64,000 bases of DNA from positions 4,498 through 68,497 of the forward strand of contig JBAYNV010000001.1 of NCBI GenBank assembly GCA_041678685.1, in the 5' to 3' direction. Numbering within the stretch: the stretch's first letter is position 1; each line of letters starts with the position of its first letter. Under the pieces are notes generated by a model, which was given only the letters and a program-made list of their open reading frames with translations, made no database searches and was not told where the DNA came from. The translations under genes and the position numbers were made by a program. Shown one piece after another: positions 9,721-48,641 of the stretch. This DNA comes from Clostridia bacterium (lineage in GTDB: Bacteria > Bacillota > Clostridia > DUPQ01).

Positions 9721-9798
9721 TGGTGAGACATCGGAGACTCGAACTCCGGACACCTTGATTAAAAGTCAAGTGCTCTACCACCTGAGCTAATGTCCCAC
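9721..9798 (-). tRNA. tRNA-Lys (anticodon TTT)
   Basis: Reverse complement GTGGGACATTAGCTCAGGTGGTAGAGCACTTGACTTTTAATCAAG...TCTCACCA. It has a cloverleaf with anticodon loop cTTTTaa and an encoded CCA. Confidence 0.85.
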
Positions 9799-9801
9799 AT
9801 T

Positions 9802-9876
9802 TGGCTGGGATGGCAGGATTTGAACCTACGAGTGACGGAGTCAAAGTCCGTTGCCTTACCGCTTGGCTACATCCCA
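9802..9876 (-). tRNA. tRNA-Gln (anticodon TTG)
   Basis: Reverse complement TGGGATGTAGCCAAGCGGTAAGGCAACGGACTTTGACTCCGTC...CATCCCAGCCA. The anticodon stem ACGGA/TCCGT has loop cTTTGac, and CCA is encoded. Confidence 0.85.
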
Positions 9877-9890
9877 CCGCACCTATCTAA

Positions 9891-9968
9891 TGGGGTGAAT
9901 AAAGGGATTCGAACCCTTGGCCTCTAGGGCCACAACCTAGCGCTCTAACCAGCTGAGCTATACCCACC
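9891..9968 (-). tRNA. tRNA-His (anticodon GTG) with G-1
   Basis: Reverse complement GGTGGGTATAGCTCAGCTGGTTAGAGCGCTAGGTTGTGGCCCTAG...TTCACCCCA. It has an extra 5' G typical of tRNA-His and anticodon loop tTGTGgc. Confidence 0.85.
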
Positions 9969-17459: not shown

Positions 17460-17538
17460 TCCAAAGATGATATTATGGGCGGAATGCTTGCAAATCTGAA
17501 GTTTTTCGGGTAAAATCTGAAATAAAAGAGGCTGATAA

Positions 17539-18342: not shown

Positions 18343-18514
18343 CAATATTTAGTATATGTTATATTATTAATACTTAATACAGATATATATAATAGAACAT
18401 CTATTAACAGTAAATTTAAATAATAATAATTGTTTTTGTATTATTATTTATTATTATATTCTATTTATCGTGTATAAAAGTTCAATATTTTTTGATTTTT
18501 ATTCGCATTTAGTA

Positions 18515-18543
18515 TTGACATTGTCATTATACGCTATTACAAT
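18515..18543 (+). promoter_or_regulatory. sigma-A type promoter of the flgB early flagellar operon (TTGACA-17-TACAAT) with overlapping palindrome
   Basis: TTGACA ttgtcattatacgctat TACAAT lies about 125 nt upstream of flgB. The -35 sits inside the perfect palindrome TGACA-T-TGTCA (18516-18526). Confidence 0.55.
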
Positions 18544-18673
18544 GTGAACTATAACATTGGATTATTAAAGATTTCACTTAAATTTTTGGGATTTACTGAA
18601 GGATTTAGTAGCAACAATCGGAATGGATTCGCAAAACAGATAAACGCATTTTTAAAAAACATTTAGGAGGTAA

Positions 18674-19021
18674 ATGATGTCTATTAATGTTCTTAAAAAT
18701 ACTCAGATTGTGACCGATGGTATGGATAAATGTCTGCAGCGAAATCAAATACTTGCTTCAAACATAGCTAATTCGGCAACACCCGGGTATAAGGCCAAGG
18801 ATGTGTTTCTCAATATCCTTAATCCTGTCAATAAAGAAGGAGGCATCAACTACTCTATCCAGGAACGTACGGATGTCGAGGTCAAGGAAAATGGAAATAC
18901 GGTCGATATGGGTAAGGAAATGACATCGATAGTTGAAAATGTTCTGGAATACAACGCACTCGTACAATCGCTTTCTAAAAGTATCAGCAGTATAGAATAC
19001 GCTATTGATGACAGGAGGTAG
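18674..19021 (+). CDS. flgB: flagellar basal-body rod protein FlgB
   Basis: ASNIANSATPGYKAKDV rod motif. AGGAGG SD upstream. It is the first gene of the operon. The second ATG (18677) may be the real start. Confidence 0.85.
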   Translation: MMSINVLKNTQIVTDGMDKCLQRNQILASNIANSATPGYKAKDVFLNILNPVNKEGGINYSIQERTDVEVKENGNTVDMGKEMTSIVENVLEYNALVQSLSKSISSIEYAIDDRR

Positions 19022-19025
19022 AAAA

Positions 19026-19454
19026 ATGGCGAATATAGCAGCTTTCAGCATCAGTTCTCAGGCTTTATCAGTTTATCAGACTAAAATGGATCTTATAGCA
19101 CAGAACATAGCAAATGCTGACACTATCCAGACAGACACGGAAGAACCATACCAAAGAAGAGAAGCGGAACTTGTTCAGAAGGAATTGTTCAGCGCGGTTT
19201 TTGATGATGTAAAAGAAAACAAGGAAGTTATAAGCGTTGCGATCAGCAGCATCAAAGAAGACCAGACGCCTTTCACATTGGTCTATGATCCTACAAATGA
19301 ATTCGCAAATGAAAACGGTTATGTCACTAAGTCAAATGTGGACGTAACAGCAGAAATGATGGATCTGTTATCAGCAAGCCGTGCATATGAAGCAAATCTG
19401 ATGGCATTCAACACTACTAAAGATATGATTTCTAAAACAACAGAGATACTATAG
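19026..19454 (+). CDS. flgC: flagellar basal-body rod protein FlgC
   Basis: QNIANADT motif. AGGAGG 7 nt upstream of the MANIAAF start. The track start at 19005 is an in-frame upstream extension. Confidence 0.9.
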   Translation: MANIAAFSISSQALSVYQTKMDLIAQNIANADTIQTDTEEPYQRREAELVQKELFSAVFDDVKENKEVISVAISSIKEDQTPFTLVYDPTNEFANENGYVTKSNVDVTAEMMDLLSASRAYEANLMAFNTTKDMISKTTEIL

Positions 19455-19481
19455 TTTTTCTGTCGAGGGGGGAGAAAAATA

Positions 19482-19793
19482 ATGTCAATTCAGGGTATCA
19501 GTGGGATATCTCAGGCACAGAACATCGTTCAGACTGCGGATATATCGAAAAATAATCTAAATAGTGTTACAAACAATGAATTCAGTGATGTTTTTGATAA
19601 TCTGCTTAAAAACCTTGTGGAAGCGGAATTAAACAATGAAAACAACTTAAGTATGCTTGTTTCAGGTGATATTGCTAATATAAGCCAGGCGATAGTAGGG
19701 CTTGCAGAAACTGATCTGACCATACAGTACACTATGGAAGTGAGAAACAAGATCGTGGATTCATATAAAGAAATCATGCAGATGCAAGTATAG
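19482..19793 (+). CDS. fliE: flagellar hook-basal body protein FliE
   Basis: 103 aa with the C-terminal EIMQMQV characteristic of FliE. Confidence 0.85.
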   Translation: MSIQGISGISQAQNIVQTADISKNNLNSVTNNEFSDVFDNLLKNLVEAELNNENNLSMLVSGDIANISQAIVGLAETDLTIQYTMEVRNKIVDSYKEIMQMQV

Positions 19794-19805
19794 GGGAACG
19801 ATGAA

Positions 19806-21323
19806 ATGCCAGATTCAATTAAGTCCATTTTTTCAAAAATCAAAACCTTTTGGAACGGTATAGAAAAAAAGCGTAGAAACAGTATAGTTTTCATGATAAT
19901 ACTGTTTGCCATAGGTATGTCGACGCTTCTTATACTGTTCACCCGTGTGACGTACACGGTCATGTATTCAGGACTTGATGTATATGAAGCCGGTGAAATA
20001 TATACGAAACTTACCGAAATGGGAGCAGACGTCAAACTTAAAAATGATACGACGATACTCATTGATGAAACGCAGGAAGATCAGTACCGGATGGATATGG
20101 CAACACAGGGCTATCCTAAGAGTGGTCTTTCATATGATATATATACGGATAACGTAAGCATGGGCATCTCGGAAAGTGAAAAACAGACATATATGCTGTT
20201 TCAGCTTCAGGACAGACTGCAGAACACGATCAATACACTTGATGGCGTCAACGATGCAATAGTGACGATCAGCAAACCCGACAGTACGCTTTTCGTTCTG
20301 GAAAGTAAGGAGAATCCTATTACAGCCGCTGTTGTTATCGATGTCACATCCGGATTTACTCTTTCATCAGCCAATGTGAAAGCCATAGAATACCTTGTAG
20401 CAAAGAGCATGTCAGGATTAGCAAGCGAAAACATAACGATCATTGACACAAAGATGAATATCCTGAACAGCAAATCTGACAGCGATATCGGTAACGCTTC
20501 AGAAAAATACGAGCTTCAAAGATCATTGGAATATGAGATAGAGCTGAAGATCGCTTCGATAATTGAACCTATTTACGGTTACGGTAATGTCAAAGTAGCC
20601 GCTAATATTAAAATGGATTACGATAAAGTGGCGGAGGAAGTGACCGAATTCTCCCCGGTTACAGACGATGAGGGCATAGTTTATTCGGTCACTGAGAAAA
20701 AAGAAACAATAACTGAAACCCAAAATGCTACAGCGGATGATGAGACAGACACTACATTAGGAAGCGAAGCTGTCTCTTCTGAAAATTCTACACAGTACTA
20801 TGTAAATCAAAGCACAAAAACACTGGATTATGAACAAGGGATCATAGAAGCGATAACGCTTTCAATAGTGATAAACAGTATTGATATAAGCGATGATATG
20901 ATATCAGATATCAAGAAAATGGCGGCAAATGCAATAGGCGGTAATGAAGAGGATATAATCGTACAGGCAATGGAGTTTTCAGCATCAGCAGATATCGCAA
21001 ATGCAATAACGGATGCGCTTGAAAGCGACTCAGACAAATCTTTCATATTTGACCCTGAACTAATCATACAGTCAGCAATGGTCCTATGCTTATTCATTCT
21101 TGGCGTTATGATAATAACCGTTTTCAAGAAAGGCTTTGTATTATCTAAAAAGCAGTTTGCCACGCAGAAACAGCCTGCAGATGATGTAGTTCTTCAGGAA
21201 CTTGGCAACAGAAAAGATCCTGAAGAAAAATACCGTCAGGAAATCGATAAATATGTCGATAAGAATCCTGAAGGGGTCGCAGACCTTTTAAAAAAGTGGA
21301 TCAATGAGGAAAATCATGGATAA
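19806..21323 (+). CDS. fliF: flagellar MS-ring protein FliF
   Basis: 505 aa with an N-terminal TM, a YscJ/FliF domain and a C-terminal TM. Its position in the operon is conserved. Confidence 0.9.
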   Translation: MPDSIKSIFSKIKTFWNGIEKKRRNSIVFMIILFAIGMSTLLILFTRVTYTVMYSGLDVYEAGEIYTKLTEMGADVKLKNDTTILIDETQEDQYRMDMATQGYPKSGLSYDIYTDNVSMGISESEKQTYMLFQLQDRLQNTINTLDGVNDAIVTISKPDSTLFVLESKENPITAAVVIDVTSGFTLSSANVKAIEYLVAKSMSGLASENITIIDTKMNILNSKSDSDIGNASEKYELQRSLEYEIELKIASIIEPIYGYGNVKVAANIKMDYDKVAEEVTEFSPVTDDEGIVYSVTEKKETITETQNATADDETDTTLGSEAVSSENSTQYYVNQSTKTLDYEQGIIEAITLSIVINSIDISDDMISDIKKMAANAIGGNEEDIIVQAMEFSASADIANAITDALESDSDKSFIFDPELIIQSAMVLCLFILGVMIITVFKKGFVLSKKQFATQKQPADDVVLQELGNRKDPEEKYRQEIDKYVDKNPEGVADLLKKWINEENHG

Positions 21324-22338
21324 TGTGATAGGCCTAAGCAATAAAATATCAGGAAAGCAAAAAGCCGCATATCTGCTTATAATGTTAGGCAAAAATCAGG
21401 CATCAAGGATCATGAAATTTTTCAATGAAACAGAGATCCGCACCATGGCTTTTGAAATAGTGAATCATAATACGATCGAAAAAGATGAAAGGATGACGAT
21501 ACTGCAGGACTTCTACAACTCCTGTCTCGCAAAAACATACATAGACAAAGGCGGGGTCGATTATGCCAAGGAAGTCCTGTACGAAACACTCGGGCCTCAG
21601 AAATCCATGGAGCTTATATCAGACATGATGGATCTGGATAAATCAAAACCTTTTGACTTCATGAAGGATGTGGATCCTGTGGAAGTCTTTAATTTTATGC
21701 AGTACGAATCCGATCAGACCATAGCTTTTATCCTTTCATATCTGAAAAACAGTCAGGCGGCAGCTATACTCTCAATGCTTCCAAAAGAAAGACAGGCTAA
21801 TATCTCCGTAAAAATCGCACTTATGGATAAGATCTCTCCAGATATAATAAAGGATATAGAAAAAGTCATGGGAGAGAAATTCACACATTCCGGGATGCAG
21901 ACATATACGAAAACCGAGGGTGTCGATATACTCGTCAACATATTGAATGCAGTAGACAGAAGCACTGAAAAACAGATATTTGACATGCTGGAAGAAGATA
22001 ATGACAGCCTTGCAGGCGAAGTCAAGAAAAGGATGTTCGTATTTGAAGATATCATCAACCTTGGCAATAAAGAAATACAGCGTTTCCTTGCCGAAGTCGA
22101 CACAAAAGACCTGTCCGTGGCGCTTAAAACAGCTACCAATGAACTGAAAGACCTTATATTAAGGAATTTATCCAAACGTGCAAAGCAAATGGTCACTGAA
22201 GAAATGAATCTTTTAGGACCTGTCAGACTCAGCGAAGTCGAAAAAGCACAGCAGTCTCTGGTCAGTGTCATAAGGGCGCTGGATGAAAAGGGAGAGATAC
22301 TTATAAGAAAATCAGGCGATGATAAGATCATCGAATAA
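21304..22338 (+). CDS. fliG: flagellar motor switch protein FliG
   Basis: GKQKAAYLLIMLG N-terminus and FliG C-terminal domain motifs. Confidence 0.9.
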   Translation: MRKIMDNVIGLSNKISGKQKAAYLLIMLGKNQASRIMKFFNETEIRTMAFEIVNHNTIEKDERMTILQDFYNSCLAKTYIDKGGVDYAKEVLYETLGPQKSMELISDMMDLDKSKPFDFMKDVDPVEVFNFMQYESDQTIAFILSYLKNSQAAAILSMLPKERQANISVKIALMDKISPDIIKDIEKVMGEKFTHSGMQTYTKTEGVDILVNILNAVDRSTEKQIFDMLEEDNDSLAGEVKKRMFVFEDIINLGNKEIQRFLAEVDTKDLSVALKTATNELKDLILRNLSKRAKQMVTEEMNLLGPVRLSEVEKAQQSLVSVIRALDEKGEILIRKSGDDKIIE

Positions 22339-22386
22339 CATTTCACTTAAAGTCAGAACACATTATTACCGATTATAAGGACAAGG

Positions 22387-23106
22387 ATGGTGAAAAGATT
22401 GAGTGATTTATATAAAAATTCCGATGTGGTGCTAATGAATGACAAATACTATATCAGCTTCACCGAAAGCCGTTCAGATACTATGAGCTTTGAGAAATAT
22501 AAATTGCACGATGCTGATGATCTGACAGGCTCGGAAATATCTGACGATATAATACGGGATGCAGAAAATGAAGCGGAAAAAATAACAGGCGAAGCAAAGA
22601 TCCAGGCAGAGAACATATTGAATCAGGCTATGAAACAAAAAGAAGAGCAATTCAGTGACGGTTATGCCAAAGGTCTTGAAAAAGCTGAAAAAGAATATAG
22701 TGAAAAGTTCAGGATGCTGAGTGATGCTTTGATGGAATCATTAAAGGCAAAGAAAGAGATGATCGAAAATACCGAACAGCAGGTGCTTTTATTATCAGTA
22801 AAAATCGCTGAAAAAATAATCCACGAAAAGATCCTTCTTTCCGAAAACAGCACCAAATCATTCTTTGAAAATTCTATCGAGGATATACTCAGAAATGACT
22901 TCAACGTGATATGCGTCCGAATGAATAAATATAATATCGAAAATCTCTATCCTGATTGGGAAGTTGAGAAATTCATGCTTAATATCAAACATGACGCAAG
23001 GCTTGATAATGATTCCTGTATCGTAGAGACAGAGACAGGAGATATCGATATCAGCGTATTCACGCAACTTAGTGAAGTCTCCAGAAAATTGATCAGTATA
23101 GCATAA
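22387..23106 (+). CDS. fliH: flagellar assembly protein FliH
   Basis: A charged coiled-coil region (EAEKITGEAKIQAENIL...) and the FliH C-domain. Its position between fliG and fliI supports the call. Confidence 0.7.
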   Translation: MVKRLSDLYKNSDVVLMNDKYYISFTESRSDTMSFEKYKLHDADDLTGSEISDDIIRDAENEAEKITGEAKIQAENILNQAMKQKEEQFSDGYAKGLEKAEKEYSEKFRMLSDALMESLKAKKEMIENTEQQVLLLSVKIAEKIIHEKILLSENSTKSFFENSIEDILRNDFNVICVRMNKYNIENLYPDWEVEKFMLNIKHDARLDNDSCIVETETGDIDISVFTQLSEVSRKLISIA

Positions 23107-23107
23107 C

Positions 23108-24421
23108 ATGATGATCGATTTAAAAAAATACCTGGATAAATTAGAAGATATGAACTGTTACAGGACATATGGTGAGATCAAAAAAATCATAGGTTCCAGC
23201 ATCGAAAGCAGCGGTCCGAGAGCTGAAATAGGTGAAATATGCAGGATAGTCAAAAAAAACAGCAGTCCGGATAGCTATATTTTAGCCGAAGTCGTAGGAT
23301 TCAATGATAAACGGATCCTTCTTATGCCATATGAAGATACAAAAGGGATCAATAATGGAGACAGGGTCTATGCTACCGGACAGCAGCTCCAGGTCAAAGT
23401 AAACGAAAAACTTATAGGAAAAGTACTTGACGGTTTAGGCAGGCCTGTTGACGGCACTGATATAGGAGCATGCGAATTAAGAGATGCGTATGCCGATTCA
23501 CCCAATCCTTTCACCAGGAAGAGGATATCGGAGCCCCTCCCTCTTGGGATCAAGGCCATCGATTCCCTGCTGACCTGCGGAAAAGGCCAAAGGCTTGGCA
23601 TATTTTCCGGTACAGGCGTAGGTAAAAGCACCCTTCTGGGTATGATAGCAAGGAATTCCTCTGCTGATATCAATGTCATAGCCCTGGTTGGGGAAAGAGG
23701 CAGAGAGGTAAATGATTTTATTGAAAAAGATCTGAATGAAGAAGGTTTAAAACGATCCATAGTAATAGTCGCTACGTCTGACCAGCCTGCGATCATACGC
23801 ATCAAATGTGCATTGGTGGCCACAGCTATTGCCGAATATTTCCGGGACAGGAAGAAGAACGTTCTTCTTATGATGGATTCTCTCACGAGATTTGCGATGG
23901 CCCAGCGTGAAGTCGGATTAGCTGCAGGTGAACCGCCTGTGGCAAGAGGCTATACTCCGTCTGTTCTGTCTGTTCTGCCGCGTCTTCTGGAAAGAACCGG
24001 ATATAACGATGAATGCTGCATTACAGCTATATATACTGTTCTTGTTGAAGGAGATGAGATGAATGAACCCATCTCTGATACCGTAAGAGGTATATTGGAC
24101 GGGCACATAATCTTATCAAGGGCAATAGCCGCTAAAAACCACTACCCTGCCATAGATATACTGAACAGTATAAGCAGGGTCATGCCTGATATCATAGACC
24201 AGAAGCACCTTCAATCTGCCATGCAGGTCAGAAATCTGCTTTCGACTTATGAGAATTACAGGGATCTGATATCGATTGGAGCATACAAGGAAGGCAGCAA
24301 TAAGGAGATAGATAAAGCATTAAAAAACATAGATAACATCAATGGTTTTTTAAAACAGAATGTAAAAGATTCCGTACTGTATAAGGACACTCTTTCCACT
24401 CTGGAAAACCTTGTGATATAG
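23108..24421 (+). CDS. fliI: flagellum-specific ATP synthase FliI
   Basis: Walker A GTGVGKST and the F1/T3SS ATPase fold signature. Confidence 0.95.
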   Translation: MMIDLKKYLDKLEDMNCYRTYGEIKKIIGSSIESSGPRAEIGEICRIVKKNSSPDSYILAEVVGFNDKRILLMPYEDTKGINNGDRVYATGQQLQVKVNEKLIGKVLDGLGRPVDGTDIGACELRDAYADSPNPFTRKRISEPLPLGIKAIDSLLTCGKGQRLGIFSGTGVGKSTLLGMIARNSSADINVIALVGERGREVNDFIEKDLNEEGLKRSIVIVATSDQPAIIRIKCALVATAIAEYFRDRKKNVLLMMDSLTRFAMAQREVGLAAGEPPVARGYTPSVLSVLPRLLERTGYNDECCITAIYTVLVEGDEMNEPISDTVRGILDGHIILSRAIAAKNHYPAIDILNSISRVMPDIIDQKHLQSAMQVRNLLSTYENYRDLISIGAYKEGSNKEIDKALKNIDNINGFLKQNVKDSVLYKDTLSTLENLVI

Positions 24422-24428
24422 GGGGACT

Positions 24429-24866
24429 GTGATGAAAGCATTTAAGTTCTCGTTGCAGTCGGTCCTGAATAATGCAAATAACCAAAAGGATGAATGCATC
24501 TTAAGGTTAAAGGAAGTGATGGCGCAGATCAGGAAGAACGAGGACGAAAAAAATGCGCATTCTGAAATGATAAGAGCATGCGAATCCAGCCTTGATTCTC
24601 ATTGTGATGCGATAGGTTTCAGGCAGATAAAAATATATATTGAGGATCTTTCAGAAAAAATCGAATCGATAAACAAGGAATTGGAAAGACTGAATATATT
24701 AAGATCACAAAGGCTCGAGGATCTGAAAAAAGCAAAAATCAAATGTTCAACATTTGAGAAGATAAGGGAAAAGAAGTACACGCAATACCTTGATGATATA
24801 AAAAAGTTTGAAGAAAAAGAAATCGAAGAGCTTGTAAACAATAACTATTTTACAAAGGCGGAATGA
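24429..24866 (+). CDS. fliJ: flagellar export protein FliJ
   Basis: A 145-aa coiled-coil protein (FSLQSVLN...) directly after fliI. Confidence 0.65.
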   Translation: MMKAFKFSLQSVLNNANNQKDECILRLKEVMAQIRKNEDEKNAHSEMIRACESSLDSHCDAIGFRQIKIYIEDLSEKIESINKELERLNILRSQRLEDLKKAKIKCSTFEKIREKKYTQYLDDIKKFEEKEIEELVNNNYFTKAE

Positions 24867-24870
24867 TAAG

Positions 24871-25647
24871 ATGAAAAAAACTGATCCACTGGCCGATAAA
24901 ACAATAAAAGAGAAAGAAGATCTGGAGGAAAAACCTTCAAAGAAGACCGGTTTGTCATCTTTATTCAAGAAGAAGCAAAAAACCGAGGATGATGGAACCG
25001 ATGATGTAACAGCAGCCCAGCCGGCAGACGAAGAGGATGAGTCAAAAAAGTCCGGTAAAAAGATAAAAATCCCGTTTAAACTCATTTTCATCATCCTGGG
25101 GATATCGGTAGCTGCTTCTGTTCTTGTGATATTCATCTTCGACTGGACAGGATGGAGAACTTCGTTAAGGGATGGTATCACGACAAAACTGCTTGGCAGA
25201 GAAAAGGAAATACTGATCGCCAGGCTTGAGTTTGAATATAAAATGAAATTAGAAACCGCAACAAAAGATATGCTGAATGAAGAAAGAGCAACATTAGTTT
25301 TAGAATACGAGGAACTTGAAGTAAAAAAGGTGGATTTCGAAACAAGAATGTCGCGCCTTGAAAGCTCGGAACTGCTGCTTGTACAGGACAGAGCGGACCT
25401 GGAGACAAGGGAAACTGAGCTTCTGGCAAATATCGAACAATTCGAAAATGGAGTTCTGGAGGTAACTGAACTTGGCAAGATTTACGAATCCATGGAACCT
25501 CAAAATGCAGCGAAAATATTAGGTTCGATGAGAGATGTGCAGCAGATAGTAAAAATATTAAAAACAATGAAAACTGATAGCATAGCAGCTATATTAGAAC
25601 TGATGGAAACACAGAAAGCAGCCGATATATTAAGTAAGCTTAATTAA
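24871..25647 (+). CDS. YlxF-like flagellar operon protein (disordered K/E/D-rich N-terminus, one TM, coiled coil, MgtE_N-like C-terminal domain)
   Basis: It occupies the ylxF position between fliJ and fliK. The C-terminus (NAAKILGSM...IAAILELMETQKAADILSKL) has MgtE-N-like helical repeats. TM: IPFKLIFIILGISVAASVLVIFIF. Confidence 0.5.
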   Translation: MKKTDPLADKTIKEKEDLEEKPSKKTGLSSLFKKKQKTEDDGTDDVTAAQPADEEDESKKSGKKIKIPFKLIFIILGISVAASVLVIFIFDWTGWRTSLRDGITTKLLGREKEILIARLEFEYKMKLETATKDMLNEERATLVLEYEELEVKKVDFETRMSRLESSELLLVQDRADLETRETELLANIEQFENGVLEVTELGKIYESMEPQNAAKILGSMRDVQQIVKILKTMKTDSIAAILELMETQKAADILSKLN

Positions 25648-25661
25648 AGGAAGACTGCGGT

Positions 25662-27170
25662 GTGTTGATAATATCAAATAGCGTACCAGATCTAGCCAAA
25701 ACAGAAAACTGTATTCAATCTGCCCAAACCAATGGTCCGACAGGATCTTTTACACAGATCCTCGAACTGTGTAACACCCTTTTAACTGATATGAATGTTC
25801 AGGGTGCGGATATAGAAAACGGATCATCCGGTACTGAAGTGGAAGTTATCGTAAATACAGCTGATAAGGATGATGAACCTGTAACTGATCCCATAATAGA
25901 CATTCCATTGGGTCAGGATCTCGTGATCCCCTGTATAAATATGGAACTGACAGGATCGGCGTTACATGAAGAAAAGATTTTCAGAGCAGATCCCGACTTC
26001 AGAGCAGATCCCGATATTCAAGACAGCACAGTTAAAATCGATAATACTATAAGTTTGCCACATGAAATACCTCAAAAAATACCGGATATCAACACCGTTG
26101 ATACCGATCGATCCAGTGATGCGCAGGAGCCTTATGATCAGCCGGCACTATCCCCTGCCCAACCAGATGCCCTAAAAACCGATCCGGCTATAAGTGTTTT
26201 ACTCAAAGAGCATCAAAACACCGTGATCACCGGTACATCTGATATCAGCCAGTCAAAGGATATGCAGATACTAAATGAACAGCCGGTACCTATGGCCATA
26301 CTATCTGATGATCAGGTAAAACCTGACCCGATCATAGCCGGACACCCGATCCCTGATAAGATCAGTGCGTTATCTGAAAAAACGGAACTGAATAATACTG
26401 ATTCAAGAATAAATATTCCAAGATCCGAAGATATGCGAAAGATCCTAGTATCACCCAAACCTTTAGATACAGCATCAGGATCATCGGATAATGAAAATGT
26501 AATATATTATGATCAGCCAAAAAACAGTGAGATCATTCATGCGGATGCTGTTGTGAAGAATAAAGATGCAGTTACAGATAAAGATGAAAGGTCATATGAT
26601 CCCAGATCAAAAGCAGCTTTCATAAACGAAACAGGTGAAGAAAAGCTGGTTTCTGCCGATAATATATTTAACAAAGGCGGAGCCGACAGGATGAATATTA
26701 TTAAAGAAGATCCGAATCAAATAGAGAAAAATCAGCTTGTGAGCCAGATAGCCGATAAAATCGACTTTTCAGTCAGGGACGGTAAAAGCGTTATTGAAAT
26801 AAGTCTTACACCCGATGATTTCGGTGCTATCGAAATAGAAACAGTTATAAGCGATAAAAGCATAAAGCTGGATATTTATACAGAAAAAAACAGTACAAAC
26901 AAGCTCCTTTGCAGCAAAACCAGTGAATTGAATACGTTGCTTACGGAAAAAGGTTTCAAGGTCGAGCAGATCAATATATCAGATAAGATCACTGCTTCTG
27001 CCAATTACATGAGCGGATCCGGACAGGAGTCCGGTTTTGCCAATAATAACTTCAATCAGTTTCAGCATAGCCGGTATATTTCCGTACTTAATGCACCGAC
27101 CGATACAGACAGCGAAAATGATCCTGTAATAGTCCCCTCAAATACCGGATCGATAAATATATATGTGTAA
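25662..27170 (+). CDS. fliK: flagellar hook-length control protein FliK
   Basis: GTG start with AAAGGAAG 8 nt upstream. It has a Pro/Asp/Gln-rich central ruler region and a C-terminal FliK (Flg_hook) domain (DFSVRDGKSVIEISLTPDDFGAIEIE). Confidence 0.7.
   Translation: MLIISNSVPDLAKTENCIQSAQTNGPTGSFTQILELCNTLLTDMNVQGADIENGSSGTEVEVIVNTADKDDEPVTDPIIDIPLGQDLVIPCINMELTGSALHEEKIFRADPDFRADPDIQDSTVKIDNTISLPHEIPQKIPDINTVDTDRSSDAQEPYDQPALSPAQPDALKTDPAISVLLKEHQNTVITGTSDISQSKDMQILNEQPVPMAILSDDQVKPDPIIAGHPIPDKISALSEKTELNNTDSRINIPRSEDMRKILVSPKPLDTASGSSDNENVIYYDQPKNSEIIHADAVVKNKDAVTDKDERSYDPRSKAAFINETGEEKLVSADNIFNKGGADRMNIIKEDPNQIEKNQLVSQIADKIDFSVRDGKSVIEISLTPDDFGAIEIETVISDKSIKLDIYTEKNSTNKLLCSKTSELNTLLTEKGFKVEQINISDKITASANYMSGSGQESGFANNNFNQFQHSRYISVLNAPTDTDSENDPVIVPSNTGSINIYV
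25979..26014 (+). repeat. perfect 18-bp tandem duplication inside the fliK ruler region (ttcagagcagatcccga x2, encoding FRADPD-FRADPD)
   Basis: The direct repeat is visible in the sequence. It is in frame and leaves the ORF intact. Confidence 0.8.
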
Positions 27171-27179
27171 GGAGAGAAA

Positions 27180-27578
27180 ATGAACATTATACCTATAGGG
27201 CAGACCACTGAATATGTTAACAATGCAAAAGCTGAAGACGCCACTACAATGGATCAGGAAGACTTTCTTCAGATCCTGGTATCTCAGATGCAGAACCAGA
27301 ATCCTATGGAACCGATGGATGATTTCGAATACATGAGCCAGATAACGCAATTTTCCATGCTTGACAGTGTTGACGGTATCTATTCGCAGATATCAGGACT
27401 GAAAGCCCTGGATTACATAGGCAAGAATGTCATCGGCTCATATATGAACGACAGCAGTACGACCACCCAATATATAGAGGGGCTTGTGCAGAGCATAACC
27501 ATACAGGATGATTCCGTGATACTGAACCTTGAGGATGGATCACTGTATATGGACAATGTTCTAAATGTGTATGAATAA
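27180..27578 (+). CDS. flgD: flagellar hook capping/assembly protein FlgD
   Basis: DFLQILVSQMQNQNPMEPMD is the FlgD signature. Confidence 0.85.
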   Translation: MNIIPIGQTTEYVNNAKAEDATTMDQEDFLQILVSQMQNQNPMEPMDDFEYMSQITQFSMLDSVDGIYSQISGLKALDYIGKNVIGSYMNDSSTTTQYIEGLVQSITIQDDSVILNLEDGSLYMDNVLNVYE

Positions 27579-27630
27579 AGTAAATATTATTTGCATATAA
27601 CAGATAAGTGAGAAAACAGGAGGAAGAAAA

Positions 27631-28902
27631 ATGTTAAGATCGATGTATTCTGGAGTGTCAGGGCTGCTGTCCCATCAGAAGAAGATGGACATAATAGGCA
27701 ACAATATCGCTAACGTCAATACGACTGCTTTTAAGAGCAGCAATATCGTTTTTGAGGAAGTATTCAGCCAACTGGTCGCAAGCGCCGCCCAGCCCACTGA
27801 AGATGGCAGAGGCGGTATAAATCCCCAGCAGATAGGACTTGGAGTTAGCATTGGTAATATAACCACGAACATGTCAAAAGGCAGCATCCAGACGACCGAC
27901 AATCCCAATGATCTGGCAATTGACGGTGAAGGCTTCTTTGTTGTAACTGACGGTTCAGGTATCTACTATACTAGAGCAGGAAGTTTCAATGTTGATAAAG
28001 ACGGAAGTTTAGTCAATGGCAGCGGATACAAGGTCATGGGCTGGAACAAAAATCCCAGTACGGGCAATATAGACACAAGTAAACCTACTGAGGCCGTAGA
28101 TTTTTCCAATCTGAAGATGCAGGCCAGGAGCACGACGAAAGTCAACCTGACAGGCAATCTGAGCAGCGAAACGCCTCAGTATGATTCTGAAAATGATGAA
28201 AATGCTATCCTTCATAATCTGACTATATACGATTCATTAGGAGAATCGCATACACTGACTTTTAAATTTATGAAGAACGCAACCGCAAACGGATACTCAT
28301 TCGCGCTTACCGAGAGCGATAGTACATTCGAGATCTCTGCAGGTTCCACAGGGGGCTCCGTTGGTTTCAATTCATCAGGCAAGCTTGATGCAACTGCCAC
28401 CACTGTACCTCAGGTCTCGCTGACATTTTCTAACGGAGCGGATAATATATCGTTTGCTGCAGGTTCAATAACGTTTGATCCTATAAGCTTCACGCAATAC
28501 TCAAACAGCACTTCAGTAAAATCCTCACAGGATGGTTACAGCTCAGGAGAACTGGAAACACTGAGCATAAGCAGCGACGGGCAGATAATAGGACAGTTCA
28601 CAAACGGTCTTCAGGATCATGTTTCAACACTGGCTGTTTCATCTTTTATAAATACTAACGGTTTACAAAAAGTCGGAGGCAATATGTTCTGCACGACATG
28701 GAATTCAGGAGATGCGGATGTAGGCACGGCAAACACAGGAGAACGCGGTTCTATTGCTACTTCCTCCCTTGAAATGTCCAATGTGGATCTTGCAACGGAA
28801 TTTACGGAAATGATAGTTACTCAAAGAGGATTCCAGGCAAACTCAAGGATCATATCCGTATCCGATGAATTGCTTGAAGAGCTCGTTAATCTGAAGAGAT
28901 AA
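27631..28902 (+). CDS. flgE: flagellar hook protein FlgE
   Basis: The N-terminal MLRSMYSGVSGLLSHQKKMDIIGNNIANVNTTAFK and a C-terminal rod/hook heptad domain. Confidence 0.9.
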   Translation: MLRSMYSGVSGLLSHQKKMDIIGNNIANVNTTAFKSSNIVFEEVFSQLVASAAQPTEDGRGGINPQQIGLGVSIGNITTNMSKGSIQTTDNPNDLAIDGEGFFVVTDGSGIYYTRAGSFNVDKDGSLVNGSGYKVMGWNKNPSTGNIDTSKPTEAVDFSNLKMQARSTTKVNLTGNLSSETPQYDSENDENAILHNLTIYDSLGESHTLTFKFMKNATANGYSFALTESDSTFEISAGSTGGSVGFNSSGKLDATATTVPQVSLTFSNGADNISFAAGSITFDPISFTQYSNSTSVKSSQDGYSSGELETLSISSDGQIIGQFTNGLQDHVSTLAVSSFINTNGLQKVGGNMFCTTWNSGDADVGTANTGERGSIATSSLEMSNVDLATEFTEMIVTQRGFQANSRIISVSDELLEELVNLKR

Positions 28903-29120
28903 TGGCAGGAAGGAGTAAACTTATGATTTTACTTACACAGATAAATGACAAACCTATAATACTTAACTGTGATTTGATTTTACAGATCGAAGAAACTCCT
29001 CATACGGTCATAAAGATGGAAAATGGCGATAAATATCTGGTAAAAGAATCAGCTTTGCAGGTAGTGGAAAAGGTCATTAGTTTCAAGGCCGAAATACAGA
29101 TAAGGGCACAGGTAGTATAA
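28902..29120 (+). CDS. flbD: flagellar protein FlbD
   Basis: 72 aa. The motif LTQINDKPIILNCDLILQIEETPHTVIKMENGDKYLVKES is the FlbD family pattern. Confidence 0.8.
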   Translation: MAGRSKLMILLTQINDKPIILNCDLILQIEETPHTVIKMENGDKYLVKESALQVVEKVISFKAEIQIRAQVV

Positions 29121-29894
29121 ATGGCGATAATAGGTATAGCATTAGCGATATTCCTGGTACTTTACTCAATAATGCTCAATGGCAAATTGATCAGTTTCTA
29201 TGATCTTCCCTCTGTTTATATCGTTATAGGGGGAACCATCGGTGCTTTGCTATGCAATTACCCGCTCAAAAACCTACTGGCATGCGGAAAGGCATTCATT
29301 AAAGTCATTAAGTTCAAAGCTCCGGACAGGCAGGCTATACTTGATAAGATCATTGAACTTGCATATGCATCAAAAAAAGAGGGATTGCTTGCATTAGAAA
29401 AATATACGGAAGAAATGACTGATGAATTTCTAAAGAAAGGCGTGCTTCTGATAGTGGACGGGACTAAACCTGAAGATGCCCGAAATGCTCTGGAGAGCGA
29501 CATAGCGATTACAGAACAGCATGAAAAACTTGCTCAGGACATATTTAACCAGGCTTCAAAACTTGCACCTGCATTTGGAATGATAGGCACGCTGATAGGC
29601 CTTATTAACATGTTAGGAAAACTTGATGATATAGGAACACTGGGTTCCAGTATGTCCATAGCCCTTGTAACGACCTTTTATGGATCCTGTGTTGCCAATA
29701 TCGTATGCATCCCTGTTGCAGGCAGGCTCAAGTGTATAAGCGATATCGAAGTGGAGAACAAGACGATGATGCTGGAAGGGATAATGGCTATCCAGTCAGG
29801 CGAATCTCCATACCTTATCAAAGAAAAACTCAGTTCTTATATAATAAAAACCGGAAAGGAGAGCAAAAAAGAAGATGAAGAGGAAAAGCCCTGA
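29121..29894 (+). CDS. motA: flagellar motor stator protein MotA
   Basis: Four TM segments and the MotA/TolQ/ExbB family plug/loop. Confidence 0.9.
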   Translation: MAIIGIALAIFLVLYSIMLNGKLISFYDLPSVYIVIGGTIGALLCNYPLKNLLACGKAFIKVIKFKAPDRQAILDKIIELAYASKKEGLLALEKYTEEMTDEFLKKGVLLIVDGTKPEDARNALESDIAITEQHEKLAQDIFNQASKLAPAFGMIGTLIGLINMLGKLDDIGTLGSSMSIALVTTFYGSCVANIVCIPVAGRLKCISDIEVENKTMMLEGIMAIQSGESPYLIKEKLSSYIIKTGKESKKEDEEEKP

Positions 29895-30690
29895 TCCGCC
29901 TGAAGGCGCAGCCGACTGGGTAGTATCATATGGTGACTGCATGTCATTGCTTCTGACATTCTTCATCATGCTTTATTCCTTTTCAACAGTCGATGCTGTC
30001 AAGTGGCAGCAATTAGCTGAATCAATGAGAGGAGCGCTCGGTAAAAGCAGCTATGTAGAACAACAGTCATTCAGTCCGATAAAAAAAGTAAGCAGTTCCT
30101 CCGGTAACAAGGGCGCCATTATACAGACGATCGTTGATAAAGGCGGATCCATCCCAAGTATAAACGGAGAGCAGCCAGCGGATACGGATACACCTGCAGA
30201 TACCGGTTACAGTGTGGAAGAAGCATTTGGCGATCTGTATGATGACCTTCTTCAGGGGATAACAGCCGGGGGAAATGAATTGTATGTGGACATAATCCGT
30301 ACCGAGAGTTCGATAATACTAAGATTCACGAATAAGATACTTTTCGAATCAGGGAATGCTGATCTTGACGAAGAAGCACTGGACATAATATCAGCGATAA
30401 TGGCAATAATATCAGAGTATGAGGAATATCTGGATAAACTGGTCATAGAAGGCAACACAGATAATATACCGATAAATACAGCAAGATACAGAGACAATTT
30501 CGAGCTTTCCATATACAGAGCTCTGAATGTTTTTTATTTCATAGAAAGAAGCGACCTCTTCCCTGCCAATAAAATAGAGATCAAGGGATATGGCGAGAAC
30601 AATCCCATCGCTACAAATGACACTTCGGAAGGACGCGCACTGAACAGACGTACAGATATCGTAATTATGAAAGCGGAGGTGGATGAATGA
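29875..30690 (+). CDS. motB: flagellar motor stator protein MotB (OmpA-like peptidoglycan-binding C-domain)
   Basis: The N-terminal WVVSYGDCMSLLLTFFIML with the conserved Asp, and a C-terminal OmpA domain (NRRTDIVI). Confidence 0.9.
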   Translation: MKRKSPDPPEGAADWVVSYGDCMSLLLTFFIMLYSFSTVDAVKWQQLAESMRGALGKSSYVEQQSFSPIKKVSSSSGNKGAIIQTIVDKGGSIPSINGEQPADTDTPADTGYSVEEAFGDLYDDLLQGITAGGNELYVDIIRTESSIILRFTNKILFESGNADLDEEALDIISAIMAIISEYEEYLDKLVIEGNTDNIPINTARYRDNFELSIYRALNVFYFIERSDLFPANKIEIKGYGENNPIATNDTSEGRALNRRTDIVIMKAEVDE

Positions 30691-31127
30691 AGAAAATTAT
30701 GATCATTGTGGCAACACTTATATTAACGGTCGTACTTACGTTCGTTATACTTATCGCATTTCCGGATACCAAAGCATATGAACTGCCTGAACCATCTCCA
30801 AGCCCTTCCGAATCACCTGTTGAAAATAAACTGTACACGTATGTGCTCGAAGATGCATTTATCACAAATATGAAAAACAGCAACGGATTTGTTCAGGCAT
30901 CTTTCATGCTGGAGATAACGAATGAAGCGGATCTCTTATATATACAGGAGCATAATTACATACTGACGGATACGATAATAAACGTTTTGAGGAATACCAC
31001 AGAGGAAGAGTATCTTAACGATGATATACAGCAGATACTGCGTGAACGCCTCAAAGAAGTGTTGATGACTGCTCTGGGCATTGACAGTATACAGAATGTA
31101 TTCTTTTTAGAATTAGTTATACAGTAG
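30687..31127 (+). CDS. fliL: flagellar basal body-associated protein FliL
   Basis: An N-terminal TM followed by a FliL periplasmic domain. Its position before fliM supports the call. Confidence 0.75.
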   Translation: MKKIMIIVATLILTVVLTFVILIAFPDTKAYELPEPSPSPSESPVENKLYTYVLEDAFITNMKNSNGFVQASFMLEITNEADLLYIQEHNYILTDTIINVLRNTTEEEYLNDDIQQILRERLKEVLMTALGIDSIQNVFFLELVIQ

Positions 31128-31136
31128 AGGGAAAAT

Positions 31137-32111
31137 ATGAAAGATATTTTATCGCAGTCAGAAATCGATGAGCTTATACAGAGTCTCAATTCGCCAAGTG
31201 AAGAGCCTGTTTCCGCAAAAAAAGAAAGGGTAAAGCCTTATGATTTCAGCAGGCCTAATAAGTTCACCAGGGAACAGGTCAGAGCTATTGAAGAAATTTT
31301 CGGGAATTTTTCGAAGGTCTTGTCATTAAGGCTTTCTGATTTTGCCAGAAGCACCTGCTTATTTGAGGTGACATACATTGAAGAACAGACATTCTTTGAA
31401 TATACCAATTCTGTTCCGAAATCATCACTTATCGGCGTGTTCGGCATAAAAAACAGCGAGCATAATGCATCTGTGGAATTATCATATTCTATTGTTCAGA
31501 GCATTATAAACCTGATGCTTGGCGGAGACGGGAAAAATGATCAGGAAACTTTTACCGGATTTACCGAAATTGAAATAAATCTTATAAACAGAGTGTTGAA
31601 AGTATTTATCCAGCCGATGATAGAAGTATGGAAAAGCTATATCGATTTAGGCATTAAACTGGAAAGAGTAGAAAACATGGGACAGCATATACAGATAGCG
31701 GCACCAAGCGACATCATTGAAATAATCACGCTTAAGGCTCAGATAGCGGAGAATGAAGGTTTCATAAACTTCTGCATCCCATACCTGCTGATCGAGCCGG
31801 TACTTAAGATCATTGCTTCCACGCAGAGTTATACTCTTACATCAAAAAATGACGGTGTGTCACACGAGGAATTTTTAAAAACCAAGATCATAAGGAATGT
31901 CGTGGAAATGGTCTGCAGTCTGGGAAAAGCTTATCTTACACTTGATGAGCTTGGCAAAATACAGGTCGGTGATGTGATCAAATTAAAGAAGAAGACAAAT
32001 GAAAATGCAGAATTGCTTCTTAATAATATACCTAAGTTCAAAGTCGATATAGGGCAGAAGAACAATCGTTATGCAGCAAGAATCAATGATTCTGTGGAAA
32101 GGACAATGTAA
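31137..32111 (+). CDS. fliM: flagellar motor switch protein FliM
   Basis: An N-terminal CheY-P binding segment (LSQSEIDELIQSL) and the FliM middle domain. Confidence 0.9.
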   Translation: MKDILSQSEIDELIQSLNSPSEEPVSAKKERVKPYDFSRPNKFTREQVRAIEEIFGNFSKVLSLRLSDFARSTCLFEVTYIEEQTFFEYTNSVPKSSLIGVFGIKNSEHNASVELSYSIVQSIINLMLGGDGKNDQETFTGFTEIEINLINRVLKVFIQPMIEVWKSYIDLGIKLERVENMGQHIQIAAPSDIIEIITLKAQIAENEGFINFCIPYLLIEPVLKIIASTQSYTLTSKNDGVSHEEFLKTKIIRNVVEMVCSLGKAYLTLDELGKIQVGDVIKLKKKTNENAELLLNNIPKFKVDIGQKNNRYAARINDSVERTM

Positions 32112-32112
32112 A

Positions 32113-33129
32113 ATGGTAAAAGAACTCACTCAGGAAGAGATCGACATGCTTATAAACGGTAACAGTAAAACAACTCTTACTGAAGAAGAAATAGATATGA
32201 TCGGCGAGATCGGAAATATAGGAATGGGTAATTCAGCTACTGCCCTTTCTAAGATACTGAAAAGAAAAGTTAATATAACGACACCTAAAGTGATCATCCT
32301 TGATCAGCATAAAATGCCCACGGAATATGCTATACCTTATGTGACAGTGGAGATAGCATATACGGAAGGCTTAGAAGGAAAAAATATCCTGAATTTAAAG
32401 GATGAGGACGTAAAAATAATCACTGATATCATGATGGGCGGGACCGGTGTAGCAAAAGACGGGCCTATCGATGAAATGAACCTAAGCGCTGCAGGAGAAC
32501 TGATGAATCAGATGATAGGTACCGCATCCACTGCACTTTCGGAGATGATGAATATAAGGCTCAATATATCGACTCCAAATGTCAGAATAACTGACTATGC
32601 GAACGAGCAGATCAACGATTTCACTGGAAATGAAATACTGGTATTGACCGTATTTGATCTGAACGTCGAAAACACATTAAAAAGCGAGATCATGCTTGTT
32701 ATGACACTGGATTTTGCTAAAGAAATGGTCAGTACAGTCAAAAAACAATATATGGAGGCATCACAAAGACCTCAGCAGACACAACCTGATACCGGCAAAC
32801 CTGAGGAAACGGCCAGTAAAGTAAATGTCCAGAAAGTAGAACTTCAGACATTCGGCGATGAATCAAAGGCTCCTGCGATGAACGGCAACAGATATGACAT
32901 ACTGATGGATGTCCCATTGGAAGTGTCTATCGAGATCGGCAGAGTAAAAATGCCTATCAGTGAGATATTGAAATTCACCAGCGGTACGATCATTGAGCTG
33001 GACAAGCTTGTAGGAGAAGATGTGAATATCGTTATAAATAACAGAACTATAGGAAAAGGGGAAGTTGTTGTTATTGATGAATATTACGGGATGAGAATCT
33101 CCGAAATACTCGATCAGAACAGCATATAA
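32113..33129 (+). CDS. fliY: flagellar motor switch phosphatase FliY (CheC-like + FliN domains)
   Basis: A CheC-type motif (DMIGEIGNIGMGNSATALS) and a C-terminal FliN/SpoA domain. I prefer the start at the MVKELTQ ATG with GGAAAGGA upstream; the track start at 32071 overlaps the fliM end. Confidence 0.8.
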   Translation: MVKELTQEEIDMLINGNSKTTLTEEEIDMIGEIGNIGMGNSATALSKILKRKVNITTPKVIILDQHKMPTEYAIPYVTVEIAYTEGLEGKNILNLKDEDVKIITDIMMGGTGVAKDGPIDEMNLSAAGELMNQMIGTASTALSEMMNIRLNISTPNVRITDYANEQINDFTGNEILVLTVFDLNVENTLKSEIMLVMTLDFAKEMVSTVKKQYMEASQRPQQTQPDTGKPEETASKVNVQKVELQTFGDESKAPAMNGNRYDILMDVPLEVSIEIGRVKMPISEILKFTSGTIIELDKLVGEDVNIVINNRTIGKGEVVVIDEYYGMRISEILDQNSI

Positions 33130-33141
33130 GGGAGGTACAGC

Positions 33142-33504
33142 ATGGCTATGGGAATTTTAGTGGTAGACGACGCGGCTTTCATGAGAATGATGATCAAGGA
33201 TATTCTGTCAAGAAACAATATCCAGGTAGCAGGAGAAGCTCCAAATGGAGTAATAGCGGTTGAAAAATACCAGGAACTGAAACCTGAACTCGTGATCATG
33301 GATATCACGATGCCGGAAATGAGCGGTGTAGATGCTTTAAAATGCATCAAAAAGATGGATCCGAAAGCAAATGTGATAATGTGTTCCGCATTGGGACAGC
33401 AGGATATGGTCATGGAAGCCATACAGGTCGGTGCGAGGGATTTCATAGTAAAACCCTTTCAGGAAGGAAAACTTGTTCAGGCAATAAGAAAATTTGTAAA
33501 GTAG
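33142..33504 (+). CDS. cheY: chemotaxis response regulator CheY
   Basis: 120-aa receiver domain with the DD...D...T...K signature (VVDDAAFMR, IMDITMP, KPF). Confidence 0.9.
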   Translation: MAMGILVVDDAAFMRMMIKDILSRNNIQVAGEAPNGVIAVEKYQELKPELVIMDITMPEMSGVDALKCIKKMDPKANVIMCSALGQQDMVMEAIQVGARDFIVKPFQEGKLVQAIRKFVK

Positions 33505-33545: not shown

Positions 33546-33587
33546 ATAAAAATACAGAAAGGATCAGTTGCTTTCCGTATTTTTTTA
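33546..33587. terminator. bidirectional rho-independent terminator between convergent cheY (+) and cheD (-)
   Basis: ATACAGAAAG gatcagttg CTTTCCGTAT has a 10-bp stem with one mismatch. It is flanked by aaaaa upstream and ttttttt downstream. Confidence 0.6.
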
Positions 33588-33607
33588 CCTGTATTATCCG
33601 GTCCGGA

Positions 33608-34692: not shown

Positions 34693-34701
34693 CTTTTTCT
34701 C

Positions 34702-48402: not shown

Positions 48403-48641
48403 TTCTCTATTTCCTTATTCAAAAATATCCCTATCTTTTCTATAGACTGATCATCATTTTTTGACGATGCATGAATGTTTTCAGCGGTGACTTCATCAAC
48501 TATTTCTTTTCTCAAGACTCTAATGCTTTTTTTTGCATTGACTCCAAGCTTGACTTTACCGTTTTGCGATTCTATGACGGTGATCTCGATATCGTCGCCG
48601 ATCAATATGGATTCTCCAGATTTTCTTGATATAACCAACAT
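48399..48641 (-). CDS. csrA: carbon storage regulator CsrA
   Basis: MLVISRKSGESILIGDDIEITVIESQNGKVKLGVNA is the CsrA signature. A C-terminal extension is present, as in flagellar CsrA of Firmicutes. Confidence 0.9.
   Translation of the reverse strand: MLVISRKSGESILIGDDIEITVIESQNGKVKLGVNAKKSIRVLRKEIVDEVTAENIHASSKNDDQSIEKIGIFLNKEIEK

Follow-up and report, generated by a model that had tools for sequence, protein, structure and literature searches.

We analysed the control region and operon of early flagellar genes that begin with flgB in a Clostridia bacterium, within a stretch of 64,000 nucleotides (nt) of contig JBAYNV010000001.1, which is called the window below. The control region extends from the end of a GNAT acetyltransferase gene to the flgB start codon, and its features are given here with the operon that follows, HP1 to HP3 being three predicted RNA hairpins of the untranslated leader and SD the Shine-Dalgarno sequence.

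18343..18514, plus strand: AT-rich tract from the GNAT stop codon to the -35 hexamer, with an AT content of 86% and runs of T around -40 to -60
18515..18543, plus strand: sigma-A-type promoter TTGACA-17-TACAAT, an 11/12 match with conserved hexamers and spacing
18516..18526, no strand assigned: perfect palindrome TGACA-T-TGTCA (TGACATTGTCA), overlapping the -35 and present only in the window's species
18593..18611, plus strand: HP1, UUACUGA-AGGAU-UUAGUAG, with the GGA at 18601-18603 in the loop, predicted with RNAalifold
18618..18633, plus strand: HP2, CGGA-AUGGA-UUCG (18619-18631), with the GGA at 18625-18627, predicted with RNAalifold
18660..18676, plus strand: HP3, CAUUUA-GGAGG-UAAAUG, its loop holding the SD (18665-18670) and its 3' arm the flgB AUG (18674-18676)
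18674..33504, plus strand: early flagellar operon of 19 genes, flgB to cheY, from open reading frames (ORFs), Pfam matches and orthologue labels

Promoter, AT-rich tract and operon organisation are ordinary. The module of three hairpins with GGA motifs is conserved, lies outside Rfam and appears to be a candidate new target of a known mechanism, namely control through CsrA, a protein that binds RNA.

To place these features in a comparative setting, relatives were gathered by an FlgC search of genome contigs, from FlgB homologues and the contigs that carry them, and from FliG homologues. The FlgC search contributed one close relative and the FlgB homologues in metagenome contigs only members of lineages already known; the FliG homologues added two lineages with the hairpin module (75-77% identity) and two outgroups without it (62-63%), one of the latter labelled Christensenellales. 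The resulting set consists of nine distinct lineages with FliG identity of at least 75%, designated A to I with the window's species as A, and is made up of uncultured 'Clostridia bacterium' metagenome-assembled genomes and metagenome contigs. Two of the contigs, L010 and L011, belong to the same species as the window, L011 being a variant.

The sequence elements named in the original prediction (the promoter, the palindrome, the GGATT and GGA sites and the AGGAGG) are all present as described, with GGATT at 18559, 18589, 18601 and 18625, a further GGA at 18620 and AGGAGG at 18665-18670 ahead of the flgB ATG at 18674. Transcription is predicted from the promoter sequence to start near 18548-18551, and the leader length of about 125 nt proposed earlier is supported. 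Nowhere else in the window, on either strand, do four copies of GGATT fall within 75 nt, and a cluster of this kind arises somewhere in 6 of 500 block shuffles; the clustering is modestly above chance. Comparison with the relatives separates the copies. Only the pair at 18601 and 18625 is conserved; the pair at 18559 and 18589 is specific to the lineage, and not even the same-species variant L011 retains the GGA at 18620. The original prediction had interpreted all these sites as a leader of the CsrA type, and this interpretation survives in part, in the form of two conserved hairpins with GGA in their loops (18601 and 18625) and the SD as a third site, whereas the sites at 18559, 18589 and 18620 drop out of it for want of conservation. 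A leader ORF at 18544-18666 (40 amino acids, GTG start) was set aside, as its start lies upstream of the predicted transcription start.

The alignment of the leaders displays a conserved core amid divergent sequence, for which RNAalifold recovers de novo exactly two hairpins, HP1 and HP2; a structure prediction of this kind had been suggested as a check for GGA-in-loop hairpins, and both those found are conserved. They are present in all nine lineages, with compensatory changes in their stems. In the 57-column core alignment of 12 distinct sequences on which covariation was assessed, 90% of the cells of the HP1 and HP2 pairs can pair, as against 26-53% when the partners are slid by one to three columns; changes on both sides are seen in 5 of the 12 pairs, and none of 500 shuffles reaches the observed covariation score. 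In HP1, 91% of the cells are paired and 4 of 7 pairs have both-sided changes, and HP2 contributes one pair with a compensatory change from C:G to U:A in two lineages. HP1 also forms in 10 of 11 sequences when each is folded singly, the exception being L011, and in lineages H and I its arms are very different (CCCUUAAA/UUUAA(C)GGG and CUGCUAAA/UUUAGUAG) around the same AGGA loop. In the relatives HP2 takes the form UCUGA-AGGGAY-UCAGR, and its stem is weakest in the window's own lineage. The loops are the most conserved positions of the module: GAANGGA is invariant in HP2 in all 12 sequences and G-A is nearly invariant in HP1. A loop GGA is found in HP2 of all nine lineages and, as A/C-GGA, in HP1 of seven. 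In all seven lineages that have both, the HP1 GGA and the HP2 GGA are exactly 24 nt apart. When the full leaders of the relatives are folded as ensembles, the GGA loops are mostly unpaired (unpaired probability 0.6-1.0) and the AUG is mostly paired.

An inverted repeat in a transcript is equally an inverted repeat in the DNA, and HP1 and HP2 might accordingly be imperfect operators at about +45 to +85, at which a dimeric transcription factor would act as a roadblock. Compensatory changes would preserve their dyad symmetry just as well as an RNA stem, and early flagellar promoters of Firmicutes are known targets of DNA-binding regulators: RstA acts at the flgB promoter of C. difficile (PMC10889297), and CodY is an example from B. 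subtilis (cited in PMC3720852). A CodY box at HP1 was tried by eye and rejected, the match of 10 out of 15 positions not being conserved in the other lineages. We consider such operators very unlikely, since conservation peaks at the centre of the dyad, in the loop GGA, and not in the arms, which is the opposite of typical operators, and since the mismatches are asymmetric between strands, with 14 G.U as against 2 A.C among the non-Watson-Crick cells. These are fixed-column counts from the alignment, a hand-registered tally having been set aside as biased by the choice of arms. The excess of G.U over A.C and the high conservation of the loops favor an RNA element over a DNA operator.

A covariance model of the module, R1, has one significant match in the window, the leader itself, at 63 bits. 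Its score on the flagellin leader of the same genome is 9.5 bits (E about 5, not significant), and it has no matches in five Bacillales flgB loci (L002-L004, L006 and L007) or in the outgroups L041 and L044. Likewise, no Rfam family reaches its gathering score in the window when searched at gathering and permissive thresholds, the sole sub-threshold match being an S15 leader at 17.5 bits (gathering score 39.5), and the eight related loci give nothing at E <= 0.1.

The third hairpin, HP3, was found by a simple hairpin scan, and its presence in the relatives rests on folds of the individual sequences, the MAFFT alignment being out of register in this part. Equivalents are predicted in most lineages from different arms, such as CAUAAGG/UCUUAUG, AAACAUUA/UAAUGUUU and an outer stem AGCA/UGCU, all of them thermodynamically weak (-2 to -8 kcal/mol). 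The SD contains GGA in seven of the nine lineages, and across the lineages it lies 36-62 nt from HP2. At the opposite end of the leader, most relatives carry a 5'-proximal stem-loop of their own just past the predicted start (L001 1562-1586, and also L018, L012, L027, L029, L038 and L039), which may be a 5' stabiliser. Within lineage B these stem-loops differ between L001 and L018 solely by G.U-compatible changes; the window leader is without a clear equivalent.

A candidate for the protein that would recognize these loops is encoded in the same window, as is a flagellin leader that provides an internal reference:

48399..48641, minus strand: csrA, product of 80 amino acids, Pfam CsrA 2.4e-21, candidate trans-acting factor
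48654-49052, minus strand: fliW, Pfam FliW 3.6e-33, immediately upstream of csrA
45977-47164, minus strand: flagellin gene of the same genome
47162..47272, minus strand: flagellin promoter and leader, with a sigma-D-like promoter, a GGA-loop hairpin and an SD site

The best solved relative of the predicted CsrA is the CsrA of entry 5DMB, and the equivalents of R6 and R44 are kept in an alignment to E. coli CsrA. In lineage C, csrA, fliW and flgB are found on one contig. The flagellin gene is preceded by a sigma-D-like promoter, TAAA-15-TCCGATTA (47272-47246), a leader hairpin GGGAA-AGGA-UUCCC (47201-47188) and, 22 nt downstream of the hairpin, the SD AAGGAGGA (47176-47169). Compared over 136 aligned columns with its counterpart in lineage C (L047 7355-7480), this leader shows 89% identity and both GGA sites are invariant; by analogy with hag it is predicted to carry a canonical pair of CsrA sites. 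B. subtilis CsrA reportedly represses hag through a hairpin site and an SD site (Yakhnin et al. 2007). The flagellin-leader sites and HP1/HP2 have an A-GGA-UU core in common. CsrA dimers are reported to bridge two GGA sites 10-63 nt apart (Mercante et al. 2009), and both the 24 nt between HP1 and HP2 and the 36-62 nt between HP2 and the SD fall inside this range. Many flagellar mRNAs of C. jejuni are pulled down with CsrA, the motif being ANGGA (PMC4894983).

Between csrA and the flagellin gene lies a gene for a 358-residue protein with an HD_5/HD domain (47326-48402, minus strand), which shares 4 nt with the end of csrA, overlapping its stop codon, and lies ahead of flagellin. Lineage C has the same arrangement (L047 6240-7316), and the product may be an HD-GYP-type phosphodiesterase that links a nucleotide signal to the CsrA/flagellin module.

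These observations point to the flgB leader as a new candidate for a CsrA-controlled leader on an early flagellar operon, to which we assign a probability of about 45%. Under this proposal, transcription would proceed from the single sigma-A promoter at 18515-18543, behind the extremely AT-rich tract, and the transcript would carry a leader some 125 nt long. Two small hairpins 24 nt apart, each with A-N-GGA in its loop, would make up the functional core of the leader and would be followed by a variable A-rich linker and a weak hairpin that encloses the SD and the AUG. A CsrA dimer (48399-48641) under the control of FliW would be expected to bind the GGA loops and, tethered at HP1 and HP2, could reach the SD hairpin 36-62 nt downstream. 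There it would block the loading of ribosomes on flgB and possibly also alter the decay of the mRNA, repression being the direction that we infer. Expression of the basal-body and hook genes would thereby become tied to the homeostasis loop of flagellin, FliW and CsrA.

Several points weigh against the proposal of CsrA control. The nine lineages are few and related, so that the covariation counts overstate the number of independent events, and the module is missing from the next outgroups, at 62-63% FliG identity. The window offers the least convincing instance of the module: its leader folds as a whole no better than its shuffles (z = -0.09), and the signal appears only by comparison with relatives. 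The hairpins are individually weak (z of -0.8 to -2.3), the HP2 stem of the window has just 3-4 base pairs, and in the ensemble of the window leader the HP1 GGA is largely paired (unpaired probability 0.27). The HP1 GGA is lost in lineages B (AUGAC or ACGAC) and E (AAGAA) with the stem kept, and the SD of lineages D and G (GGGGGU) is without GGA. The regulatory logic, in which early genes would be repressed by a late-stage regulator, is speculative. To our knowledge, flagellin mRNA is the only established CsrA target in the Firmicutes. The literature that was searched likewise describes only flagellin as a target in this group (PMC10889297), and the search found no report of a CsrA site on the flgB or fla/che leader of any Firmicutes.

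The retention of the HP1 stem without the GGA in B and E raises the possibility that HP1 is selected for something other than a GGA loop, and it keeps a role unconnected with CsrA as a serious rival. The hairpins would then be real RNA elements that serve as a site for another RNA-binding protein or a small RNA, affect the stability or processing of the mRNA, or set the intrinsic efficiency of translation. Consistent with this, the stem in B and E is preserved through compensatory changes, in the HP1 loop nothing but G-A comes close to invariance, the 5'-proximal stem-loops of the relatives suggest a general selection for structured leaders, and HP3 pairs the AUG without any protein. We nevertheless hold such a role to be somewhat unlikely, because the invariant GAANGGA of HP2, the A/C-GGA in HP1 of 7/9 lineages and the fixed distance of 24 nt are what a CsrA dimer requires, because CsrA and a canonical target with the A-GGA-UU core occur in the same gene cluster, and because no Rfam family matches the leader.

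The same hairpins could also be put to the reverse use, with the leader serving as a decoy: its two high-affinity GGA hairpins would titrate CsrA, and transcription of the early operon would thus relieve the repression of flagellin. Two GGA hairpins at a fixed distance of 24 nt do resemble the unit of a CsrA-sequestering RNA, and titration of CsrA by an mRNA leader in a system of the FliW type is exemplified by the flaA leader of C. jejuni (PMC4894983). However, a further GGA-loop hairpin that lies within reach, 36-62 nt away, holds the SD and AUG, an arrangement more in keeping with a target, and the mRNA of an early operon would probably be too scarce to serve as a sponge; a decoy function therefore seems quite improbable to us.

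The sigma-A promoter from which the proposed CsrA-controlled leader would be transcribed agrees well with the original prediction. With its -35 TTGACA at 18515-18520, a spacer of 17 nt and its -10 TACAAT at 18538-18543, it is the top plus-strand promoter match within 17500-36000 (18.5 kb). The number of promoter-like matches in this interval, 62 against 56.9 in shuffles, displays no excess, and the match score by itself is therefore weak evidence. It is the comparison that carries the assignment: all nine lineages have TTGACA (TTTACA in H)-17-TAnAnT about 121-186 nt upstream of the flgB start, and the hexamer columns are the only invariant ones in the alignment of about 200 bp upstream. A plus-strand scan of 10 intergenic regions found no sigma-D-type motif (TAAA-N15-GCCGATAT-like) upstream of flgB, and the same pattern does recover the flagellin and cheA promoters in the window. 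The conserved hexamers and spacing, combined with this negative result, render the sequence-based call of a housekeeping, sigma-A-type flgB promoter well supported. On the opposite strand there is a sigma-D-like match, TAAATATTGTTAGTTATGATCGATAT at 18325-18351 (minus strand), running in antisense orientation into the GNAT gene from its 3' end. Neither such a match nor CGATA was seen in the intergenic regions of the relatives, which were scanned on the plus strand only, and the match is probably due to chance.

The palindrome over the -35 fares differently. It had been proposed as the likely operator of a dimeric regulator, with conservation in related genomes as the test of that idea. It is found in the window and in the same-species contigs L010 and L011 and is missing from the other eight lineages, the six bases after the -35 being TTGTCA in A, TATCAA in B, TTACGA in C, TTGAAT in D, TGGTTT in E, TTGAGT in F, ACAGGT in both G and H, and AATCAT in I. 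As these bases differ in every other lineage, the operator idea fails by the standard set for it. The 64 kb contain one perfect copy and 5 copies with at most one mismatch (2.3 expected; 8 of 100 shuffles reach 5), and there is no copy at any other promoter of the window that might define a regulon motif, the near-matches not being at promoters. Judged from these comparisons, the palindrome is probably a product of chance. It is conceivable that TGACATTGTCA is a true operator confined to this species, at which a dimeric repressor would occlude the -35: the perfect 5+1+5 dyad lies precisely over that hexamer, a rough calculation puts the occurrence of TGTCA at that spot by chance at <1%, and lineage E has another inverted repeat that uses the same -35. 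Nonetheless, functional features nearby are kept in the 8/9 lineages from which the palindrome is missing, no second copy stands at any other promoter in the 64 kb, and only 6 bp separate the half-site centers, an unusually short distance for a helix-turn-helix dimer. The palindrome was, moreover, singled out where many promoters and types of feature could have been chosen. A species-specific operator thus has little to recommend it and is, in our view, highly improbable. The repeat of lineage E, TGTCAA-ATTA-TTGACA (L027 2826-2848, identical in L032), is situated on the upstream side of the same -35 and could be a coincidence or a lineage-specific operator.

The tract upstream of the promoter was described earlier as more than 80% AT over about 170 bp, and 18343-18514 indeed measures 86% AT; the stretch 18344-18493 is the lowest-GC 150 nt in the 64 kb (12% GC, as against 41% for the window as a whole). 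GC content over the 150 nt that precede the -35 is 14% in the window and 14-22% in eight of the nine lineages, so that AT-richness is common to the relatives, while the upstream sequence itself is not conserved. A segment at 18488-18503, TTTTTTGATTTTTATT, places A- and T-runs in an A/T-rich context at -40 to -60, and T-runs at about this position are common to lineages A, B and C. The phasing of A/T tracts that had also been claimed was not recovered: there is no excess power at periods of 9.5-11.5 nt, with 329-625 of 1000 shuffles at least as high. The T-runs fit an UP-like element, and the tract probably acts as one or as a DNA-bending element, though it may instead be a site for a regulator or a nucleoid protein. 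The only other stretch of the window with <20% GC, 59904-60053, is found upstream of the second, convergent flagellar operon on the minus strand, which runs from fliO through flhA, a sigma factor and flgM on to csrA; a promoter-like site TTGCAT-17-TATACT occurs near the fliO start, within 59863-60108 (minus strand). Extreme AT-richness may be a common trait of both early flagellar promoters.

Two further features delimit the plus-strand locus:

17539-18342, plus strand: GNAT acetyltransferase gene (Pfam), directly upstream neighbor of the flgB control region
33548..33590, no strand assigned: intrinsic terminator, probably bidirectional, where cheY and the next gene converge

A GNAT gene precedes flgB in seven of the nine lineages. 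The GC content of the window is 41%, and the orthologous loci of all related lineages have 28-36%. The operon downstream comprises, in order, flgB, flgC, fliE, fliF, fliG, fliH, fliI, fliJ, an MgtE_N-like gene, fliK, flgD, flgE, flbD, motA, motB, fliL, fliM, fliY and cheY. The Pfam scan took in 15 of these 19 genes, and the identities confirmed by Pfam in the window are FlgB, FlgC, FliE, CheY, CsrA, FliW, FliH, FliI, FliJ, FliK, FlgD, FlgE, FlbD, MotA and FliM; fliF, fliG, motB and fliL were named by the position of the ORF and the Pfam labels of orthologues in related loci. All intergenic gaps from flgB to cheY are at most 52 nt, an apparent gap of 218 nt at 28903-29120 being occupied by the small flbD gene (28923-29120), and terminator-like matches within the operon are at the level of shuffles (14 against 12.4). 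After cheY, the region 33505-33610 has a folding energy of -27.1 kcal/mol (z = -3.0) and presents an A-run, a hairpin and a U-run in that order; this structure escaped a simple scan owing to a stem mismatch, and the converging minus-strand gene ends at 33608. The earlier view of flgB to cheY as one transcription unit is upheld by these data, and the single-operon reading is consistent with the sequence, which would also accommodate internal promoters.

The minus strand encodes fliO, further ORFs outside the Pfam scan, flhA, a sigma factor, two rod-protein genes, flgM, flgN, flgK and flgL, then fliW, csrA, the HD-domain gene, flagellin, flaG, fliD and fliS, and finally cheA, cheW and genes for methyl-accepting chemotaxis proteins (MCPs). 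Between fliS and cheA there is a sigma-D-like promoter, TAAAGAAATCAATGTTTGCTCCGATAT at 43041-43067 (minus strand), which by its sequence suggests that cheA, cheW and the MCP genes form a late unit dependent on sigma-D. A gene for a DtxR-family repressor occupies the position of this promoter in lineage C (L047 11481-11870). tRNA genes are present at 9724-9967 on the minus strand.

In its strongest form, the proposal of CsrA control would state that the FliW-CsrA switch of this clade directly controls the early basal-body and hook operon through an undescribed three-hairpin GGA motif, or that the leader titrates CsrA; we put this forward only tentatively and with some doubt. If it were true, the Hag-FliW-CsrA homeostasis circuit of Gram-positive bacteria would reach beyond flagellin, and the feedback loop could close onto the top of the flagellar hierarchy, making the synthesis of new basal bodies responsive to the status of flagellin secretion. 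This would offer a mechanism for the control of flagellar number in organisms without a master regulator of the FlhDC type. A compact and conserved RNA motif missing from Rfam is a further product of the analysis, and a 140-nt transcript and an 80-residue protein would suffice for a direct test of it. The palindrome, for its part, illustrates how a striking symmetry in a single genome can vanish once relatives are compared.

The closest parallel is the hag system of B. subtilis, with which the window shares the set of proteins (Hag, FliW and CsrA), the adjacency of csrA and fliW in a late flagellar cluster, and the plan of an upstream GGA-loop hairpin combined with an SD site, a layout that the flagellin gene of the window closely reproduces. 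It differs in that the candidate target is here the sigma-A-driven flgB operon and not a sigma-D-driven flagellin gene, and in that the leader has two upstream hairpins at a fixed 24 nt in addition to a hairpin at the SD and AUG. The fla/che operon of B. subtilis, which is served by the promoter PA and an upstream sigma-D promoter, PD-3, is likewise a very long operon with a sigma-A promoter before flgB and an AT-rich upstream region. In contrast to it, no lineage has a sigma-D-type promoter in its flgB intergenic region, the operon of the window ends after cheY, with the half from fliO through flhA, the sigma factor, flgM and flgK to fliW and csrA convergent on the opposite strand, and the upstream neighbor is the GNAT acetyltransferase gene.

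Within the Clostridia, the flgB leader of C. difficile contains the Cd1 cyclic di-GMP riboswitch and an invertible flagellar switch, and it is controlled after initiation (PMC10889297, PMC7446863). The window resembles it in having a long untranslated leader on the early flagellar operon of a member of the Clostridia, for which control is proposed here; it differs in that neither the cyclic di-GMP riboswitch nor any other Rfam family is found in the window or the eight relatives, and its leader is much shorter. A wider parallel is provided by flhDC of E. coli and the flagellar mRNAs of C. jejuni, where the action of CsrA extends past flagellin to further flagellar genes by way of several GGA or ANGGA sites in leaders, as is suggested for the candidate in the window. 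The flhDC leader of E. coli has two CsrA sites at its extreme 5' end and binding stabilises the mRNA, and the antagonists of CsrA in that organism are small RNAs. Unlike it, the module of the window begins some 45 nt downstream of the leader's 5' end and takes in the SD, a layout suggestive of translational repression, and the predicted antagonist is FliW.

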